A stretch of DNA of 64,000 bases from Patescibacteria group bacterium (lineage in GTDB: Bacteria > Patescibacteriota > Minisyncoccia > UBA6257 > 1-14-0-10-40-38). The notes below the pieces were generated by a model. The model saw nothing but the letters and a program-made list of their open reading frames with translations, was not told the DNA's origin and did no database searches. Shown here piece after piece: positions 2,066 to 41,087 of this stretch; positions within the stretch are counted from its first letter, which is position 1; each line of letters begins with the position of its first letter. Where the stretch lies: NCBI GenBank assembly GCA_038064975.1, contig JBBTRX010000006.1:79154-143153 (forward strand). Direction: 5' to 3'. A program made the position numbers and the translations under genes.

Positions 2066-3316
2066 ATGCTCTTGAGAGACGCATTCAAAACTGCTACACG
2101 AAGTTTAACGCACGGCAAGATGCGCTCTATTTTAACGATGTTGGGGATCGTAATCGGCATTTCGTCCGTGATCGTCCTTATGTCCATCGGGCAGTCGGCG
2201 CAGGATCTTATTCTGGGCGAAGTGGAAAGTATCGGCTCCAACCTTATTATCGTGACCCCGGGTGCGCCAAGCGGGGACGCCTTTGCTCCGCCTCCTTCCG
2301 CGCAGGGGATAGTCATCACAACACTCTTAGAAAGGGATATTAAGGCCTTAGAGCGCGAGCCTTCCATTAAAGGCGCGGCTCCTATGGTAAGCGGCCAAGC
2401 AGAAGTTGTGTATGGAAATAATAATAAAACCGTAAGCTACCAGGGCTCTACGGCAGAATTATTTGTCATACAGAATCTTGAACTCAAGAGCGGATTTGCG
2501 TTTACTAAGTCAGACGTAAATTCTGGCAATCACGTGGCGGTAATCGGGCCTGACCTTGCAGAGACCTTATTCGGCAAGTACGTTAATCCGTTAAATAAAA
2601 CGATTCGGGTTAAAAATATTTCGTTTCGTGTCGTCGGAGTTTTGGAGGCGAGCGGTACAGGTGCTTTTGGCGTAAACCAAGGCGATATGGTGATCATTCC
2701 GATCACAGTCGCGCAAAAGGAACTTTTAGGCATCATCTATTTCAACAACATTCTTGTACAGGCGAATCCGGAATACGAAATTGATTTTGCAAAATCGCGC
2801 CTCACGTTCGCGCTTCGCCAATCACACGGCATCACGGATCCGAAAAAAGATGATTTTATTATTCAAACGCAGGCAGACATATTGTCTATCTTGGGGAGCA
2901 TCACTTCTATTCTCACGCTATTCTTGGCAGCGATCGCATCCATTTCGCTTATCGTGGGTGGCATCGGGATCATGAACATCATGTTAGTCGCGGTCACCGA
3001 GCGCACGCGCGAAATTGGTCTCCGTAAAGCCGTGGGCGCAACAGACGGGGATATTTTAAAACAGTTTTTAATTGAGTCGGTCTTGCTCACGTTTATCGGT
3101 GGTGCGATAGGTATAGCGGTGGGGGCGGGCATCGTGGGGTTAATTTACTTTGTACTTACCACGTTCTTTGCATCCCTAGGGTGGGTATTCGCGTTTCCAA
3201 TATCAGCGGTGGTCCTAGGCTTTGCAGTGTCGGGTATAGCAGGGTTAGTGTTTGGTATCTACCCGGCTCGCCAAGCAGGGAAGAAGAATCCGATAGATGC
3301 GCTGAGGTATGAATAA
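2066..3316 (+). CDS. ABC transporter permease, FtsX/MacB family
   Basis: N-terminal TM helix, large periplasmic domain, and a C-terminal four-TM FtsX domain ([30 protein letters not shown]). Confidence 0.85.
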
Positions 3317-3497
3317 CTCTTGGAATTTCCCGCTGGAAATTCCACTGCGGAGGGAAAAAGCTTCTCCAAAAAGCCGCAAAATCCCCAGGGCTGGTGAGTG
3401 GGAATTAGGTCTTTGCGTCGTAGATAGAGGATGTGATTTTGACGCCCCCGCCTTGCAAGCAGGACTGTTTTTATTTGTAAAAATATACGGTACAATA

Positions 3498-3698
3498 ATG
3501 AATATGATAATAAAGAGAATTTGTTTGTGGGTAGTTGTTACATCAATTATTCTTTTTGCGGTGATCGCGCTTCTTGCGATCTGGGATGTGATCAAAGACA
3601 ATAGTTTCGTCTGGAAATCACTCACTTCACTTGCCGTGGTCTGCTTCAGCGGCCTCGTGGGCGTTGTGCTAAGCGATAGGATAAAACCGATACAATAA
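3498..3698 (+). CDS. small membrane protein (66 aa, two predicted TM helices)
   Basis: MNMIIKRICLWVVVTSIILFAVIALLAIWDV... The ORF extends upstream to 3309, but the hydrophobic core starts at this ATG. A terminator follows immediately. Confidence 0.3.
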   Translation: MNMIIKRICLWVVVTSIILFAVIALLAIWDVIKDNSFVWKSLTSLAVVCFSGLVGVVLSDRIKPIQ

Positions 3699-3700
3699 TA

Positions 3701-3730
3701 AAAACCGAGCCTACTAGGGCTCGATTTTTA
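3701..3730. terminator. bidirectional intrinsic terminator between convergent genes
   Basis: Stem cgagcc/ggctcg with loop tactag. It is flanked by AAAA on the 5' side and TTTTT on the 3' side. Confidence 0.6.
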
Positions 3731-3740
3731 TTTGTAAATT

Positions 3741-4667
3741 TTATTGAGAAGTTTTCTCAATGATCATAGCAGTGTTTTTCAGACAAGTTTCTTTCTTCCT
3801 TTCTTGTTCTATAAATTCACAAACCGAAATGTCTGGCAATAAAGCAGCAACCGAATCAAAACAGCCGTCTTTATCGGTAAGATTAGTAAGATTATTACAA
3901 AGAGATGGATCGTGTTCTTGTACTGCTAAGTTAATATAACAAGCGCGTATAGTATATTTCCCCACATTAAGACAAATGTCAGAGTTTTTAGTCTGCAGAG
4001 CCGCATTGTTATAACAAATACCTTGCCAAATTTCACCTTTTAATAATTTACACGCTTCAGAGTCGCCAGTATTTCTTACCACTTCAGAAACGCATTCGGG
4101 AAATGTAGCGCTACTAGAAGGGTCATGAATTTTAAAACACAAAGAAATGTCATTTTGCGCAATCGCTTTTTGTTGTAAAAGCTTACTTTCTTCAGATGTC
4201 TGATATGAAGTAATTGAAAAAATAATAAAAACAAATAAAATAACGGACAGAAAATAATTAAATATCTCAATATTAGGGCGACGTTCCTTTTGTCTGTGTA
4301 GTATGGAAACGATAATTATTGAAACAATTGCGACCAACAAAGCAGGGGTGGCAAACCATAACAACTCACGGAACGAAACAAGATCTGCTTCCGGCAAAGC
4401 AATTTTATTGTAAACAAGCGGAGAGATAAAAACCCATACCATAGGAGCAATCCAGAGCAGTATTTTAGTCCTATGATAAAGAAGAAGAGATGCTAAAAAT
4501 AAAAGAAAAAGAATTCCAAAATGAGCTATTCCATACGAATTAAGGGTTGCGAAAAATCTGCCCTGATAACGGTAATTCAGAATAAGTCTTGGCAGAAGAG
4601 TAATAAGGGATGAGCCAATAATAGCAAGAGCAATATTATGTAGTATTTTTCTTAATGTTGCGTTCAT
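3741..4667 (-). CDS. integral membrane protein with a C-terminal Cys-rich extracytoplasmic domain (hypothetical)
   Basis: Five or six predicted TM helices in the N-terminal 170 aa, followed by a domain with more than 12 Cys. The DNA is AT-rich (island). Confidence 0.5.
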   Translation of the reverse strand: MNATLRKILHNIALAIIGSSLITLLPRLILNYRYQGRFFATLNSYGIAHFGILFLLFLASLLLYHRTKILLWIAPMVWVFISPLVYNKIALPEADLVSFRELLWFATPALLVAIVSIIIVSILHRQKERRPNIEIFNYFLSVILFVFIIFSITSYQTSEESKLLQQKAIAQNDISLCFKIHDPSSSATFPECVSEVVRNTGDSEACKLLKGEIWQGICYNNAALQTKNSDICLNVGKYTIRACYINLAVQEHDPSLCNNLTNLTDKDGCFDSVAALLPDISVCEFIEQERKKETCLKNTAMIIEKTSQ

Positions 4668-4727
4668 ATATAAATTCTATCAGATATTTTCTAGGTTTGC
4701 AGAATTGGGCAAAAAGGGGCAGAATAA

Positions 4728-4847
4728 TTTGAAGTTACTATTCCTATAGAAATAGTTCGCGAACTCAAATGGAAAGAGAGGCAGCGCGTAGTCGTAACCA
4801 AGAAGGAAAAATCTTTGATTATTAAGGACTATACTCCGAAGAAGTAA
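4728..4847 (+). pseudogene. AbrB/MazE (SpoVT-AbrB swapped-hairpin) antitoxin-like remnant without a canonical start codon
   Basis: Frame 3 translates FEVTIPIEIVRELKWKERQRVVVTKKEKSLIIKDYTPKK*, which contains the IPxEIR and KxGDxV-like core of AbrB/MazE domains. No ATG, GTG or TTG start lies after the preceding TAA, and no toxin partner follows. Confidence 0.25.
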
Positions 4848-4912
4848 GAGGGTGTAAAGAGATTTCTTACAGGGATATTTGAGGCAAAGGTTTTTCTGCT
4901 ATTGATATATCT

Positions 4913-5530
4913 ATGAATATTTTTCAAAAAGGAAATTTTGAACCATTGTCTAATGAATTTAAACGATTAGGATTTTTAGCTTTGCAACAACTATCAAAAT
5001 TTCAAAAAAAATTTAATATTAGTGACACAGACACAACAATTAATTCTATTAGAGATACTATTGTTTCTAGTTATTTAGGCTTTGATCTTATTAATAAGAA
5101 CAAGCATGGTTTCGATGCAAAAAATAGTAGAACCGGAGAGTTTCTTGAAGTTAAGCAGTGTAGTTCGTCTGCAAAAAGATGGGGTGGCACATGGAATGAT
5201 ACGAATTTTGAAAAAGCAAAAGCTTTTTCAAATGCAAAATTATTTACAGCAGTTGCTGTCTGGAGTGGCGCCAGTGATCTTCAATTTATTGTTTTTGGTC
5301 AGAATAAAAAGTTAGGTTTATATTTACTGGATAGAGTAAAAAATAGAAAAAGCGGAAGTCGTTCAACACAAACTATTAGTATAGAAAAACTTATAGAGTG
5401 GGGGTTTATCGTTATTGTGCCTCCCGACAAAAAAGTAAACGCAGTATTGAAACAATTAGCTGTATATAAAAAGGGAGTATCTAAATATCTTAATTCTAAA
5501 AACATTAAGAAAGTAAATAATTTTAGATAA
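4913..5530 (+). CDS. putative type II restriction endonuclease (PD-(D/E)XK fold) of an R-M module
   Basis: HGFDAKNSRTGEFLEVKQ gives D-x10-E-V-K, a canonical PD-(D/E)XK catalytic spacing. AT-rich, basic, and convergent to a DNA methyltransferase gene. No other family signal was recognised. Confidence 0.4.
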   Translation: MNIFQKGNFEPLSNEFKRLGFLALQQLSKFQKKFNISDTDTTINSIRDTIVSSYLGFDLINKNKHGFDAKNSRTGEFLEVKQCSSSAKRWGGTWNDTNFEKAKAFSNAKLFTAVAVWSGASDLQFIVFGQNKKLGLYLLDRVKNRKSGSRSTQTISIEKLIEWGFIVIVPPDKKVNAVLKQLAVYKKGVSKYLNSKNIKKVNNFR

Positions 5531-5532
5531 AT

Positions 5533-6228
5533 ATGTTAATAGATAAATTTAATAAATTTCTAAAATCGATTGATCTTGAGGCTTATAGAAATCAATATAG
5601 GCCCGTTAAGATTGTAGAAATGGATTTATCCAAAGAGATACAAGCAATTGAAATGCTTTATGAAGTTTATTGGCATCAAAAAAGATTTTTGACGTTTGAA
5701 GAATTTTATGAAGAATATTTAAAAAGTAAGGGAAAAGAGATTGAAGTTTTTAGAAAAAAGACTACGATGTGCAAAGATTGTTTCTATAGAGGATTGCCTG
5801 CAAGAATTTATAGAACATGGGCTAGTATTATTACTCAAATACATGCAGGATATGTCGCTGAGTCTGTTTTTGGAACAGGGACAGTCTCTATGTCTATAGA
5901 ACTTGATCATAAAGGAGCGGATTTTCAGGTTGAATATATAAAGAGAATTTTAAATTATCAAGTAAAAAAGAAATCTCTTGGCAGAGAAGTTAGACAAGAA
6001 AAACCAAAATCAAAGAACCCGTTAAAAGGGGAATTTGTAGATATTAAATACGAAGTTCCTAGTAGTGATTATTTTGAAAATCCGAAAAAGAAGAATGGGG
6101 ATTATAAATTGCCATATGAAAGATTTAAAAACAATAAAGAATTAGAAAGATTTTCAAACGGCTTTGTTGTTTTTACTCCCTATGTTTTTCAGAAAAAGAA
6201 AAAGGAAATAGATGATACTTTAAAATAA
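5533..6228 (+). CDS. hypothetical protein, probable second component of the R-M-like module (nuclease or specificity subunit)
   Basis: Begins 3 nt after the preceding stop (operon). Contains ELDHKGADFQVEYIK acidic/Lys motifs. AT-rich island composition. No confident family assignment. Confidence 0.4.
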   Translation: MLIDKFNKFLKSIDLEAYRNQYRPVKIVEMDLSKEIQAIEMLYEVYWHQKRFLTFEEFYEEYLKSKGKEIEVFRKKTTMCKDCFYRGLPARIYRTWASIITQIHAGYVAESVFGTGTVSMSIELDHKGADFQVEYIKRILNYQVKKKSLGREVRQEKPKSKNPLKGEFVDIKYEVPSSDYFENPKKKNGDYKLPYERFKNNKELERFSNGFVVFTPYVFQKKKKEIDDTLK

Positions 6229-6229
6229 T

Positions 6230-7744
6230 TCAAGAAATATTTACACTAGATACTATCTTTTCGGCCATCCGTACGTAATCGGGATTAATCTCAAAACCGA
6301 TATACGATTGTCCTAATTCTTTTGCTGCGACACATTCTGAACCAGTTCCCACAAACGGGACGAGAACCACGCCGTCTTTATTCGGAATTGCTGACCTGAT
6401 AAGCCTTCTAGAAAGCTCAAGGGGTTTCTGTGTAGGATGTTTCATTATTTCATGTCCTTCGTGTTTCTGTAATTGTCGTGGCGCATGTACTTCGTCGCAG
6501 GTTTTGCATAAAAACCATCTTTCAATCATTCCTGCTCCACCAGCTAAAGCAGCGATTTTAATAACATCTCGGGGCAATGCTCCACCAGCATGAGCGTTGT
6601 AAATAGTCTCAGTCCCTCCTTTACTGAATCTTCCCACCGTTCCTTTTCTTACTTTTCCAGCAGCTCCATTTAAAAATCCTTCGGTATAGGGTTCCCTAAC
6701 GTCATCTCTATTAAAATTTGGCTTCTCTTTCCAAGCGCAAATAATTGATTCATGACTTCTCTGCCAAAAATTTAAAGAAGCAACATTTTTATTCGTATAA
6801 TGCCAAATTAACCAGCGTTTATTTATAGGGATTTCTACAGAGAGATGAGCTAAAATTTCACTAAATCCATATATAAACATTGTTCCCGCTGGTTTCATTA
6901 TCCTAATACTTTGATTGATCCATTCTTTGCACCACGAAACATATTCACTTAATTCTCGTTTATCAATGTTATTTCCAAAATCTTTACCGATATTATATGG
7001 AGGATCAATTATAATAACGTCGCAACTTTCTGACGGCAAATCTGATAATCCTTTTATTACATCACTTAATAATATTTTATTGAGTGGGAGTTTTTGATAT
7101 TTTTTCTCTTCCCTTTTGATTTTCGGCAAAACCGAAACATTTTGAGGATTTTCTTTAATCACATCAAGTACGATTCCTTGTATAGAAACATCACGATCAT
7201 CTCGTAATATGATCGGCTCCATGTTTTTATTTGCCGGCTGTAATCGTATATGATTTTTTTCTTTATAGAATTTTTTTAACGTTGCTTCTTGATTATCTAT
7301 TAATGCAACAACTTTTTCTCCATTGTTTGCCGTTGATTGATGTTTGACAAGAATGATGTCCCCATCATTTATATTTTCTTCAACCATACTATTGCCAATC
7401 ACGCGAAGCGCATAAACATCTCCAGAAAGGGGGATTCTGTTTTGCGGTACAGCAATCGTTTCTTTTTCTACGTCAAAAAGAGTAAGGGGTTGTCCTGCGG
7501 CAATGGCGCCCAAGAGGGGAACTTTCACTAATTTTTCTGATCTGGATATCGTTATACTGCGCGGCTTATTGATTTGTTTATTTAATAAACCCATTTCTTC
7601 TAATGCGCTTACGTGCTGGTGTACGGTAGAGACTGCTCGCAATTTGAAATGATGCTTAATTTCTTGGAGTGAAGGAGCGTACCCCTTTTTAGCGGTGGAA
7701 GCGATAACAAAGTCGTAGATTTGTTTTTGTTTCCTTGTGAGCAT
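6230..7744 (-). CDS. LexA repressor fused to a beta-class N4-cytosine/N6-adenine DNA methyltransferase
   Basis: The N-terminal 200 aa align along their whole length with LexA: LTRKQKQIYDFV winged HTH, the Ala-Gly cleavage site in PLLGAIAAGQP, catalytic Ser in GNSM and Lys in ATLKKF. The C-terminal 300 aa carry IIIDPPYNIG (motif IV DPPY), HPTQKPLEL and VLVPFVGTGSE (motif I); this order is typical of pfam01555-type MTases. Confidence 0.8.
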   Translation of the reverse strand: MLTRKQKQIYDFVIASTAKKGYAPSLQEIKHHFKLRAVSTVHQHVSALEEMGLLNKQINKPRSITISRSEKLVKVPLLGAIAAGQPLTLFDVEKETIAVPQNRIPLSGDVYALRVIGNSMVEENINDGDIILVKHQSTANNGEKVVALIDNQEATLKKFYKEKNHIRLQPANKNMEPIILRDDRDVSIQGIVLDVIKENPQNVSVLPKIKREEKKYQKLPLNKILLSDVIKGLSDLPSESCDVIIIDPPYNIGKDFGNNIDKRELSEYVSWCKEWINQSIRIMKPAGTMFIYGFSEILAHLSVEIPINKRWLIWHYTNKNVASLNFWQRSHESIICAWKEKPNFNRDDVREPYTEGFLNGAAGKVRKGTVGRFSKGGTETIYNAHAGGALPRDVIKIAALAGGAGMIERWFLCKTCDEVHAPRQLQKHEGHEIMKHPTQKPLELSRRLIRSAIPNKDGVVLVPFVGTGSECVAAKELGQSYIGFEINPDYVRMAEKIVSSVNIS

Positions 7745-7875
7745 ATACTAATTTTAACAATAAAATACCGAAAGAAAACCGAAACTTATCCCCAGATTGC
7801 TTTGTGCATTTTTAGAGAGTAAAATACTAATGTAAATTTAAGGTCCGACTTAGAAAAAGCACTTCGTTTCTTCCA

Positions 7876-7902
7876 AGCCGGGCTCCCGCCCGGTTTTGTT
7901 TA
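7876..7902 (+). terminator. orphan intrinsic terminator-like hairpin 18 nt upstream of the next start codon
   Basis: ccgggc-tccc-gcccgg followed by ttttgttt. No plus-strand gene lies upstream. Confidence 0.4.
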
Positions 7903-7919
7903 GAAAAAATTAACAGTAT

Positions 7920-8855
7920 ATGATCAATGCAATAGAACTTTACGGAACCCTAATTCTTACTTTACTTGGCTTTATTGTTCCCATTCTAACGATTCTACTT
8001 TCTTTATTTCCACAAGGTACAAAATCATTAGCACTTAAATATGAAAATGAAAGAAAGCAAAGTGAAGAAAATATTTCAAATGAAATTAAAAAGAAAGAAA
8101 CAGAAAAAGGACTAGATTACGATTCTCTTAAGGAGACGCTGAAAGGTTTAGAAAAAAAGAGGTCAGAAGCTAAATCAAAGCTTGAGTATTTACATCCAGG
8201 CAGCTTTCTTTTCAAAACAACGATCCCATTCATTGTTGCATTCATGGGCGTATTACTCATATTACTTGACATACCAATTTTTGAAACGATTATAGTATTA
8301 ATCTCTAGCATTTTTGCTTTCGTAGCCGGAGTTATGACTTTATTTACTAGCATATCTGTTCTATTTGAAGTAGGAGAAATCACTAACCAAGCAAAAAATT
8401 CTAACGAAGAAAAAATAATTGAACTCTTATCAATTTTAGTTGAAAACAGTGGAACAGATAACCTTTATTTAAAAGAAGACGAAATCAAAGTGAAATTCGG
8501 TGATAAAAATCTAAAAGAAAACGAGAAGTTTGATTTTTCAGTTAACACTCAACATAAAATATCCATTAGGGTCCATAACAGCGCAGACAAGATGGCAAAA
8601 AATATTGAAGTAGGCTTTGTCTTTCCTAAAGATGTTTTAATAGAGAAAACATCTAATCTATCTTCAATATTTACAGATGAATCAATTCAAATTGTAAGAT
8701 TCAAGAATGAAATAATTCAGGCACATGAAAGTAATGATAAAGGTGCTCTACGAATTACTTTTTTGAAACCCGGAGAGGTGTCAATAGATCTATTTATAAA
8801 AGGAGAAAACGTAAAATACAAAAGATTTTCTTTCAAACTTAATATAATAAACTAA
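7920..8855 (+). CDS. membrane protein with charged coiled-coil segment (hypothetical)
   Basis: Two TM pairs flank a KE-rich segment; the C-terminal domain is soluble. AT-rich island composition. Confidence 0.5.
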   Translation: MINAIELYGTLILTLLGFIVPILTILLSLFPQGTKSLALKYENERKQSEENISNEIKKKETEKGLDYDSLKETLKGLEKKRSEAKSKLEYLHPGSFLFKTTIPFIVAFMGVLLILLDIPIFETIIVLISSIFAFVAGVMTLFTSISVLFEVGEITNQAKNSNEEKIIELLSILVENSGTDNLYLKEDEIKVKFGDKNLKENEKFDFSVNTQHKISIRVHNSADKMAKNIEVGFVFPKDVLIEKTSNLSSIFTDESIQIVRFKNEIIQAHESNDKGALRITFLKPGEVSIDLFIKGENVKYKRFSFKLNIIN

Positions 8856-22189: not shown

Positions 22190-22642
22190 CTAGCAGAGAA
22201 CCGGCTCTCTCTTGTCGTTGACACCGATGACGGCCATGCAGGCCGGATCAGATTTTTCCGCCGCAAGCGTACACCGTGTTCCCGGAGGCAGTTCTTGGAA
22301 ATCCGTCGGCAAGAACTCGGTTTGCAAATCGCGGACACCATCGTTCCAAGCGGCGACTACATTCATTGCCCAAGTGTGAGGAACGAAGATGCCGTCTTGG
22401 AATTCCTTGGGAGTCGGTGTTCTATCTCTCACAGTTTGACTCTCAAGACTCGGAGTCCACAGGAGAATGCCTTTGAATCCATTGCCTTCCGAACCGGACG
22501 CGAGACGGAAGAAGCGATCGAACACTTCTTGTGAGCTGATACCGCAGGTCTCTGCAAGTTCAGAGAGAGAAACCCACGCACGTCCCTGCGGACCCCAATA
22601 GCTTGCCGGAGCGAACTTATTGCCTTGTTTCATGTTGTGCAC
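22190..22642 (-). CDS. hypothetical protein on a high-GC insert (probable recent horizontal acquisition)
   Basis: GC about 55-60% against about 45% in the flanks. It has the only strong SD in the window (GGAGGTG 6 nt before ATG) and its own TTGACT-17-TATACT promoter. Confidence 0.5.
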   Translation of the reverse strand: MHNMKQGNKFAPASYWGPQGRAWVSLSELAETCGISSQEVFDRFFRLASGSEGNGFKGILLWTPSLESQTVRDRTPTPKEFQDGIFVPHTWAMNVVAAWNDGVRDLQTEFLPTDFQELPPGTRCTLAAEKSDPACMAVIGVNDKREPVLC

Positions 22643-22721: not shown

Positions 22722-22796
22722 GCATATACTCGTTATCCACATATCAATTCGTGAAAAAATAGGGTATGATTGCATATAGAAATTAGATACAAAAAA

Positions 22797-40088: not shown

Positions 40089-41087
40089 CTATGCTGAATG
40101 CTTTATCAGTATAACATCTCCATCTTTCATGCGATATTCTTTTCCCTCGGTGTGGATAAGTCCTTTGCGTTGCGCCTGCGTCCATCCGCCCGCGTGAAGT
40201 AAAACATTCCATGCCACGACATCCGCGCGAATAAATTTCTTTTCAAAATCAGAATGAATAGCTCCGGCAGCCTGTGGCGCGGTAGATCCATCCACGATAA
40301 TCCAACTGCGCGTTTCTTCCGGTCCTGTCGTAAAAAAACTAATAAGGCCGAGCTCCCGATACGCAGCCTTTACCAACTCCCCGATATCAGTATCTGATCC
40401 GAGATCCGCGATAATACTCGCTCCCCCTAGGGAGGTAATAGCGCTCTTTAATGCCTCTGGCACATGGCTCTCTTTTCCGTTCAAAAGATAAATCTGTTTT
40501 TTTGCCGTTAGAAGCTGAAGTTCTTTAATAAGCGGTTCGTTAGCAAAAGCAATCACAAGCTTACCTTTCAAAAGTTCTTCCCGAACCTGATTTCCAACCT
40601 CAAGATTTTTTTTAGCATCCTTATCTCCCGATCGAGCCTCCGCTTCAAGTTTTTTTATACGCTTCTCAAGAATATCTAAATCCTTCAAAATAAGCTCCGT
40701 GTTAATAATTTCCATGTCCCGAAGCGGATCAATAGATTCTTCCACATGGATAATAGACTCATCGGAAAAGCACCGCAAAACCTGGACAATGATTTGAGTT
40801 TCGCGGATATGCGTCAAAAATTGATTACCTAATCCTTCTCCCTTATTTGCTCCCCGCACGAGTCCGGCTATGTCATAGAACTCAACAACCGCAGGGATTT
40901 TCTTCGCCGATTCAGAAAGTTTAGCAAGGTTGTCTACGCGTTCATCCGGAACAGGAACAATACCTACATTAGGATCAATAGTGCAGAAAGGATAGTTCGC
41001 GATATTTACATCATTATTAGTGATGAGATGGAAGAGCGTTGATTTGCCGACATTCGGGAGACCAACAATGCCTACGGAAAGTTTCAT
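40089..41087 (-). CDS. ychF: ribosome-binding ATPase YchF
   Basis: MKLSVGIVGLPNVGKSTLF, ANYPFCTIDPNVG and a C-terminal TGS domain (FFTTGPEETRSW...GKEYRMKDGDVI). The 95 codons upstream in the ORF are not conserved and were treated as spurious. Confidence 0.85.
   Translation of the reverse strand: MKLSVGIVGLPNVGKSTLFHLITNNDVNIANYPFCTIDPNVGIVPVPDERVDNLAKLSESAKKIPAVVEFYDIAGLVRGANKGEGLGNQFLTHIRETQIIVQVLRCFSDESIIHVEESIDPLRDMEIINTELILKDLDILEKRIKKLEAEARSGDKDAKKNLEVGNQVREELLKGKLVIAFANEPLIKELQLLTAKKQIYLLNGKESHVPEALKSAITSLGGASIIADLGSDTDIGELVKAAYRELGLISFFTTGPEETRSWIIVDGSTAPQAAGAIHSDFEKKFIRADVVAWNVLLHAGGWTQAQRKGLIHTEGKEYRMKDGDVILIKHSA

Follow-up and report, generated by a model that had tools for sequence, protein, structure and literature searches.

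A full-length LexA repressor fused to the methyltransferase of a Type II restriction-modification module in Patescibacteria

We analysed 64,000 nucleotides of DNA (the whole stretch, hereafter the window) from a Patescibacteria group bacterium (assembly GCA_038064975.1, contig JBBTRX010000006.1, positions 79,154 to 143,153 of the forward strand), in which one gene joins a LexA repressor to a DNA methyltransferase. The gene lies at 6230..7744 on the minus strand and consists, in the list of open reading frames (ORFs), of a single ORF of 504 amino acids plus the stop codon, with an ATG start. Its translation includes LLGAIAAGQP, VIGNSM, EATLKKF, IIIDPPYNIG, HPTQKP and FVGTGSE. Pfam and NCBIfam domains, together with conservation along the full length of the protein family, define it as a LexA-methyltransferase fusion, and it is the methyltransferase (M) gene of a Type II restriction-modification (R-M) module.

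The N terminus is formed by a LexA winged helix-turn-helix (HTH) DNA-binding domain at residues 2-62 (7559..7741, minus strand; PF01726 LexA_DNA_bind, 47 bits), with the recognition helix VSTVHQHV. An S24 autopeptidase and dimerisation domain follows at residues 76-192 (7169..7519, minus strand; PF00717 Peptidase_S24, 99 bits). The LexA equivalog model of NCBIfam, TIGR00498, covered residues 2-198 with 179.6 bits against a cutoff of 110.95, and phmmer searches of the PDB aligned the same residues with LexA structures 3k2z and 1jhh over their full length, the remainder of the protein matching beta-class methyltransferases. The codons of the predicted LexA-type self-cleavage bond, Ala83-Gly84, are at 7493..7498, and those of the catalytic residues are at 7388-7390 (Ser119) and 7274-7276 (Lys157), all on the minus strand. 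These residues are equivalent to A84-G85, S119 and K156 of E. coli LexA, and all four were invariant in an alignment of 34 family members, as were the DPPY motif and the FxGxG region of the methyltransferase.

The methyltransferase core occupies residues 242-496 (6257..7021, minus strand; PF01555 N6_N4_Mtase, 130 bits against a gathering threshold of 26.7; PADLOC MTase_II). Its motifs stand in the beta-class order: motif IV, DPPY (247-250), then the target-recognition region, then motif I, FVGTGSE (464-470), with DPPY and FVGTGSE invariant. A cluster of the form CxxC...HxxH within the target-recognition region (C413, C416, H428 and H431; 6452-6508, minus strand) was also invariant, which suggests a small zinc-binding element. 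Between the LexA part and the methyltransferase runs a variable linker of about 30 amino acids (residues ~198-226; 7067..7153, minus strand), the least conserved part of the protein: mean pairwise identity was 55% for the HTH, 72% for the S24 core, 47% for the linker and 83% for the methyltransferase. AlphaFold2 modelling of the whole fusion from the 34-sequence alignment gave a mean predicted local distance difference test (pLDDT) score of 58.5, with confidence in the HTH alone and pLDDT below 50 at residues 200-227; neither the geometry between the domains nor the access of RecA could be read from the model. An initial annotation, made from the letters of this DNA, had proposed a full LexA in frame with a beta-class methyltransferase and an intact Ala-Gly site, Ser and Lys. 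The matches to all three Pfam models, to TIGR00498 and to LexA structures end to end bear out the architecture, and the conservation described above bears out the catalytic site.

The annotation had proposed a search for this arrangement in genomes from the candidate phyla radiation (CPR) and elsewhere. Our protein search returned 5,561 matches at E ≤ 1e-3; the best 120 were all about 506 amino acids long, carried the same three domains at 69-75% identity and came from Patescibacteria/CPR assemblies. Among species-representative genomes, one per species, 294 stretches encode a relative. The fusion is thus carried by over 5,000 proteins and by 294 genomes at species level, Patescibacteria nearly throughout. 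A protein identical to that of the window was encoded on three contigs, from NCBI and ENA. There is practically no chance that the fusion is an artefact of sequencing, assembly or gene calling: the identical protein on three contigs, the thousands of homologues with the same architecture from independent assemblies and the in-frame linker of the 34 aligned members rule this out, and we found neither a frameshift nor two separate genes, nor any loss of the catalytic or Ala-Gly residues. The NCBI pipeline labels fusions of 504-508 amino acids “transcriptional repressor LexA” (P0001, P0008, P0057, P0058, P0066 and others). The core of the methyltransferase without a LexA head (residues ~220-500, 51-59% identity) was frequent on viral contigs (IMG/VR, L093-L172), many of them giant-virus contigs from metagenome-assembled genomes. 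Neither the viral contigs nor GenBank phages yielded the fused protein, only relatives of the methyltransferase core (about 55% identity) and separate LexA-like matches.

Directly upstream of the gene, we identified a predicted operator at 7768..7784 (minus strand), a direct repeat TTTCGG-ttttc-TTTCGG (TTTCGG-N5-TTTCGG) with an 11-bp period that lies over the -35 region of the M promoter. A probable extended -10 element, TGtTAAAAT, was recognised by eye 8 bp downstream of the operator (7751..7759, minus strand). Because this element ends 6 nt before the ATG, the fusion messenger RNA is probably leaderless; other loci with short leaders have TGnTATAAT about 6 nt before the ATG. A generic sigma-70 scan of the window gave 10 matches versus 12 expected and did not call the M promoter. 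The exact operator of the window occurs once in the 64 kb, at the promoter of the fusion gene itself, and looser matches, 7 versus 12 expected, stayed below chance.

Upstream of nearly all fusion genes, a sigma-70-like promoter is overlapped by a direct repeat with an 11-bp period, and the repeat unit covaries across loci with the recognition helix of the HTH, the most variable domain (see the identities above). Helices of the form x-H-[F/Y/H]-[H/Y] (for example STAHFH) accompany the unit TTCTA in each of the 51 such loci where a repeat could be detected; H-[Q/E]-H (STVHQH in the window) accompanies TTCGG or TTTCG, (S)T[T/A]H[E/Q]H accompanies GCTCG, and STV[S/D]xY accompanies TTCTAG. The helix VHYH goes with TTCGA across three different methyltransferase families. 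Because the repeat unit follows the LexA recognition helix in this way, the pattern indicates that the M promoter is repressed by the LexA head of its own product. LexA motifs built as direct repeats are known from earlier work (PMC4951493, PMC7739468).

Three further observations concern these control regions. The hexamer of the operator recurs in the linker-coding region as an inverted repeat, TTTCGG-ttttg-CCGAAA (7121-7137, minus strand). We considered this as a second operator and rejected it, since it is not conserved and a unit near +600 was seen in only a few loci of the TTTCGG class (L065 and L079); it may be a chance or secondary site. The sequence GTCAA or AAGTCAA stands 1-25 nt before the ATG in 44 out of 79 loci, compared with 1.5% of background windows, and is absent from the window; this element does not resemble a Shine-Dalgarno sequence, and some loci have it as the -35 sequence TTGACTT in inverted form. 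In the cassettes with a VHYH helix (L086 at ~330-350, L077 and L088), the operator unit TTCGA(A) contains the TaqI site TCGA. The fused enzyme of L086 resembles M.TaqI (TaqI_C domain), so that methylation of the operator could feed back on repression there.

The gene next to the fusion, at 5533..6228 on the plus strand, encodes a TaqI-like Type II restriction endonuclease of 231 amino acids (PF09573 RE_TaqI, 3.5e-35; PADLOC REase_II, 9e-32). It is convergent with the M gene, the two stop codons being 1 bp apart, and a TaqI-like endonuclease gene was convergent with the fusion and directly downstream of it in 65 out of 77 loci. Across the 77 loci the upstream neighbours of the module were not conserved, and transfer RNA (tRNA) genes adjoin many of the modules, which we regard as horizontally mobile. 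The window holds a second endonuclease gene, which we call orfX (4913..5530, plus strand; 205 amino acids), in an operon with the TaqI-like gene; the two stand in tandem, 2 bp apart. The orfX family has about 213 members, all labelled “hypothetical” and free of Pfam matches, with an invariant D68...E79-x-K81. Its predicted model was confident, and a fold search pointed to a PvuII-like fold of the PD-(D/E)XK type; sequence searches of the PDB with both nucleases gave nothing useful, and the fold search was informative for orfX only.

The place of the TaqI-like endonuclease is taken by an orfX homologue in seven related loci. A third, unrelated protein of about 210-250 amino acids fills it in four further loci (L044, 7547-8200; L057, region 7520-8266; L071; L078) that have neither a TaqI-like gene nor orfX. 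This protein carries the motif “...ISAKSG...SSxRLTxF...KMSNQLW...IPL” and presumably represents another isospecific nuclease family. In 26 related loci, a C protein of 72-81 amino acids (HTH_3) is encoded and C-box palindromes lie upstream of the endonuclease (R) gene. The window has no C-protein ORF, neither in the interval 4668-4912 nor ahead of R. In the regions that precede R, orfX or C, resemblance to the LexA-type repeat amounted to chance sharing of 5-mers.

The base composition of the loci bears on the specificity of the module. TCGA, the TaqI site, was the most depleted palindromic 4-mer, with an observed-to-expected ratio of 0.33 in the window and 0.43 across about 840 kb of loci. 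Across all loci, GTCGAC was the lowest 6-mer. The TaqI-like partner endonuclease is a further indirect hint at this site. Because of the depletion and because the DPPY motif points to adenine methylation, the data suggest that the module probably recognises TCGA and makes N6-methyladenine (m6A), that is, TCG(m6A).

Directly upstream of the operator, at 7786..7794 (minus strand), lies a DnaA-box-like element, TGGGGATAA, with one mismatch to TGTGGATAA; the latter is the DnaA-box consensus TTATCCACA as read on the opposite strand. The exact 9-mer TGTGGATAA stood at -110..-30 relative to the fusion start in 57 out of 79 loci, the background density being 0.026 per kb, and 71 out of 79 had it with at most one mismatch within 160 nt upstream. 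It was also found in the cassettes of other methyltransferase families and of one unfused version. In the window, matches with at most one mismatch numbered 26 versus 13.9 expected, and the box recurs at 22733-22741 (minus strand) and 40151-40159 (plus strand); the former precedes by 11 bp the TTGACT-N17-TATACT promoter that serves an unrelated gene of 150 amino acids (22190-22642, minus strand). Because the box also stands near other promoters such as this one, a factor that acts across the host genome probably binds it, for which DnaA would be the obvious candidate.

We searched the LexA part alone against all 1.84 billion cluster representatives. Its nearest relatives were overwhelmingly proteins of 390-890 amino acids with an N-terminal LexA, ordinary LexAs of about 200 amino acids appearing only below about 45% identity, and all 20 long representatives that we scanned (20/20) consisted of LexA and S24 domains fused to a DNA methyltransferase. 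The partners were beta N6_N4, Dam-like D12, gamma (N6_Mtase/Eco57I/TaqI_C) and 5-methylcytosine (C5) methyltransferases. Across these families, the Ala-Gly pair, the Ser and the Lys (equivalent to A84, G85, S119 and K156 of E. coli) were kept in 43 out of 43 fused heads. In a neighbour-joining tree, 42 of the 43 fused heads formed one clade apart from stand-alone LexAs, and the few short members of this clade were unfused lexA-like genes beside methyltransferase genes. In these unfused pairs the lexA-like gene lies 11 bp upstream of an N6_N4 methyltransferase gene or overlaps it (directly upstream in L089, 136-1613; overlapping in L092, 1155-2671), and at least the L092 pair has the full cassette of DnaA box, GCTCGG repeat and TATAAT.

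One contig, L065, carries two LexA-methyltransferase systems with different methyltransferase families and different helix and operator types. The second LexA-methyltransferase gene there (2916-4808, plus strand; 630 amino acids) has its own convergent endonuclease (4805-5461, minus strand) and C protein (5511-5732, minus strand), and its promoter combines a TTTCTA-N5-TTTCTA repeat with a TGTGGATAA box downstream of the -10 element. We tentatively propose, as an idea with less than even chances of being right, a portable cassette of DnaA box, direct-repeat operator, promoter and cleavable LexA head, fused or adjacent, that would wire at least four unrelated methyltransferase families throughout Patescibacteria to activated RecA (RecA*, damage) and DnaA (replication initiation) signals. 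It would provide a hitherto unrecognised, damage-responsive alleviation of Type II restriction, with specificities diversified so as to insulate co-resident systems.

For the fusion in the window, we consider it moderately probable that the protein is an SsoII-like, self-repressing methyltransferase of TCGA type whose LexA head can be removed in the SOS response, so that damage boosts methylation. The LexA head would dimerise through its S24 domain and bind the 11-bp-period direct repeat over its own promoter, and the level of methyltransferase would thereby limit itself, as in enzymes of the SsoII/Ecl18kI type. Activated RecA, which arises from DNA damage and also from cuts by the endonucleases of the module itself, would trigger cleavage between Ala83 and Gly84. 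The cut would free the HTH with a new C terminus, ...IAA, and leave the S24-methyltransferase part intact. A terminus of this kind resembles the ClpX degron exposed on cleaved E. coli LexA. Release of the HTH would derepress the promoter and raise methyltransferase output, and newly synthesised or repaired DNA would be protected, a Type II counterpart of restriction alleviation. The DnaA-box-like element beside the operator may supply an input linked to replication.

Several points weigh against this proposal. The binding of DNA, the cleavage, the specificity of methylation and the regulation are predictions from sequence. The covariation of helix and operator covers only about six specificity classes that are partly linked to clades, and hence few independent events, and the depletion of TCGA lacks a control set of genomes free of the system. 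The DnaA-like box of the window has a mismatch, and binding by DnaA is a guess from identity with the consensus. No recA or host lexA was found in the 64 kb or its flanks, where tblastn with approximate E. coli queries for RecA and DnaA domain IV gave no matches. A bulky C-terminal methyltransferase might hinder docking into the RecA filament, and if the S24-methyltransferase fragment were degraded after cleavage, the net effect could be the opposite one.

That opposite effect is the core of one alternative, the SOS-triggered restriction that the initial annotation had named, in which cleavage would destabilise or inactivate the methyltransferase, methylation would lapse and the endonucleases would attack the chromosome or incoming DNA, in the manner of abortive infection. 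The strictly conserved cleavage machinery would suit SOS-triggered restriction or suicide of this kind, as would continued expression of R, a gene free of any LexA operator; in E. coli, moreover, both LexA fragments are proteolysed after cleavage. However, the methyltransferase domain would remain covalently intact after the cut and its promoter would be derepressed at once. Existing methylation would persist and hemimethylated DNA is normally protected, so that a brief lapse would not be lethal, especially with replication stalled, and the unfused lexA-like/M operons show that the head can act purely as a transcriptional repressor. We regard such a restriction response as quite unlikely; because the cut leaves S24 on the methyltransferase and derepresses the gene, more methylation and a host protected during damage would fit better. 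Still unlikely, if a shade less so, is that the main task of the S24 domain is dimerisation, or that it acts as a timer through slow self-cleavage independent of RecA and so sets the lifetime of the repressor and the kinetics of R-M establishment in a new host, with no coupling to damage. The C-terminal domain of LexA is its dimerisation domain, beta-class methyltransferases are often dimers, the operator architecture requires two heads in tandem, and no recA was found in the 64 kb or its flanks. Dimerisation, however, needs neither an Ala-Gly bond nor a Ser-Lys dyad, yet the four residues are kept in every fused head and every aligned family member.

The fusion might, alternatively, be the only LexA of the organism, an SOS master repressor that carries a methyltransferase, with the operator being the SOS box of the host. 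Its score is above the NCBIfam lexA equivalog cutoff, NCBI names the protein LexA, and the 64 kb contain no second lexA; for Patescibacteria, moreover, a LexA motif in the form of a direct repeat has reportedly been found, in work cited by PMC7739468. Against this, the operator occurs in the 64 kb at its own promoter only, and the specificity of operator and helix differs among modules that are otherwise about 70% identical. One contig holds two LexA-methyltransferase genes of different specificities. The gene always accompanies an endonuclease, in variable and often tRNA-adjacent contexts, and in the tree the fused heads group separately from LexAs that stand alone. We therefore consider a role as host SOS master very unlikely. 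The self-repressing methyltransferase with an SOS-removable head remains the reading that we prefer.

The initial annotation had also taken the architecture to be undescribed. This stands in so far as the literature that we searched contains no description of it: LexA-headed methyltransferases are absent from broad reviews of R-M regulation (including PMC12707154), and we found no paper combining LexA, Patescibacteria and methyltransferase, within a scope that excludes Sanchez-Osuna et al. 2017, a study of the SOS network in Patescibacteria. Far from being rare, however, the architecture belongs to a very large family that goes by the name “transcriptional repressor LexA”. This annotation conceals a large set of methyltransferases and can contaminate reconstructions of SOS regulons in Patescibacteria. 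Methyltransferases with a fused autoregulatory domain are a kind already known; the form with a LexA head is widespread and, if cleavage is confirmed, would bring a new signal input.

Type II R-M systems resemble toxin-antitoxin systems, and the balance of R and M needs tight control, for which C proteins, antisense RNAs and short HTH heads on some C5 methyltransferases are known. If our proposal is right, a self-cleavable LexA would make the capacity for methylation depend directly on the SOS signal, also where the nucleases of the module itself had caused the breaks, and Type II systems would gain a built-in feedback or alleviation so far known for Type I only, by an unrelated route; the R-M regulation reviews contain no equivalent for Type II driven by a LexA switch. 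CPR bacteria are reported largely to lack CRISPR (clustered regularly interspaced short palindromic repeats) systems, and given this scarcity R-M may weigh more in their defence. The helix-operator pairs would furthermore form a natural set of orthogonal, damage-inducible repressor-operator parts, as predicted here.

The closest functional parallel is provided by methyltransferases of the SsoII/Ecl18kI/EcoRII type, in which an N-terminal DNA-binding domain is joined by a flexible linker, an operator lies at the enzyme's own promoter and M is self-limiting (PMC3978073, PMC2760811, PMC12707154). The initial annotation had drawn this comparison with SsoII, and it proved apt: the window fusion likewise has an N-terminal DNA-binding domain on a Type II methyltransferase and a predicted operator at its own promoter. 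The heads differ in kind, those of the SsoII type being HTH domains of about 70 residues without a peptidase on C5 methyltransferases, whereas the head in the window is a full LexA of about 200 residues with an intact S24 domain. In contrast to the SsoII-type heads, tied to C5 enzymes, the LexA-type head occurs on beta, gamma, D12 and C5 methyltransferases. The SsoII type, moreover, usually comes as divergent R/M pairs, with SsoII and Ecl18kI controlling R too; here the genes are convergent, R is without an operator, and the operator is a direct repeat. The window fusion would thus work like the SsoII class, as judged from its sequence, but is not a member of it by homology.

The fusion has much in common with LexA proper (TIGR00498): its domains stand in the same order, the Ala-Gly site and the Ser-Lys dyad are present, autoregulation at its own promoter is predicted, and it scores above the equivalog cutoff. 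Unlike LexA, it is fused to an enzyme, belongs to a mobile R-M module and has no regulon beyond its own promoter visible in the 64 kb, and the clade of its head consists almost solely of members fused or adjacent to methyltransferases. It resembles convergent R-M systems controlled by C proteins (Esp1396I and PvuII-type) in having a dedicated regulator that would time or limit R-M expression. Unlike those systems, the window has no C gene, and M would be controlled by a fused or adjacent LexA-type repressor. Type I restriction alleviation after damage shifts the R/M balance toward protection (PMC12707154). The proposed logic here would be alike, with protection when damage or repair creates unmodified DNA, but the Type I mechanism is wholly different, being proteolysis of HsdR by host ClpXP. 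S24 repressors of mobile elements, such as lambda CI and SetR of SXT-type integrative and conjugative elements, are cleavable through RecA and read the SOS state of the host. Lambda CI and SetR stand alone and control lysogeny or transfer, whereas the repressor described here is part of the enzyme whose gene it is predicted to control.

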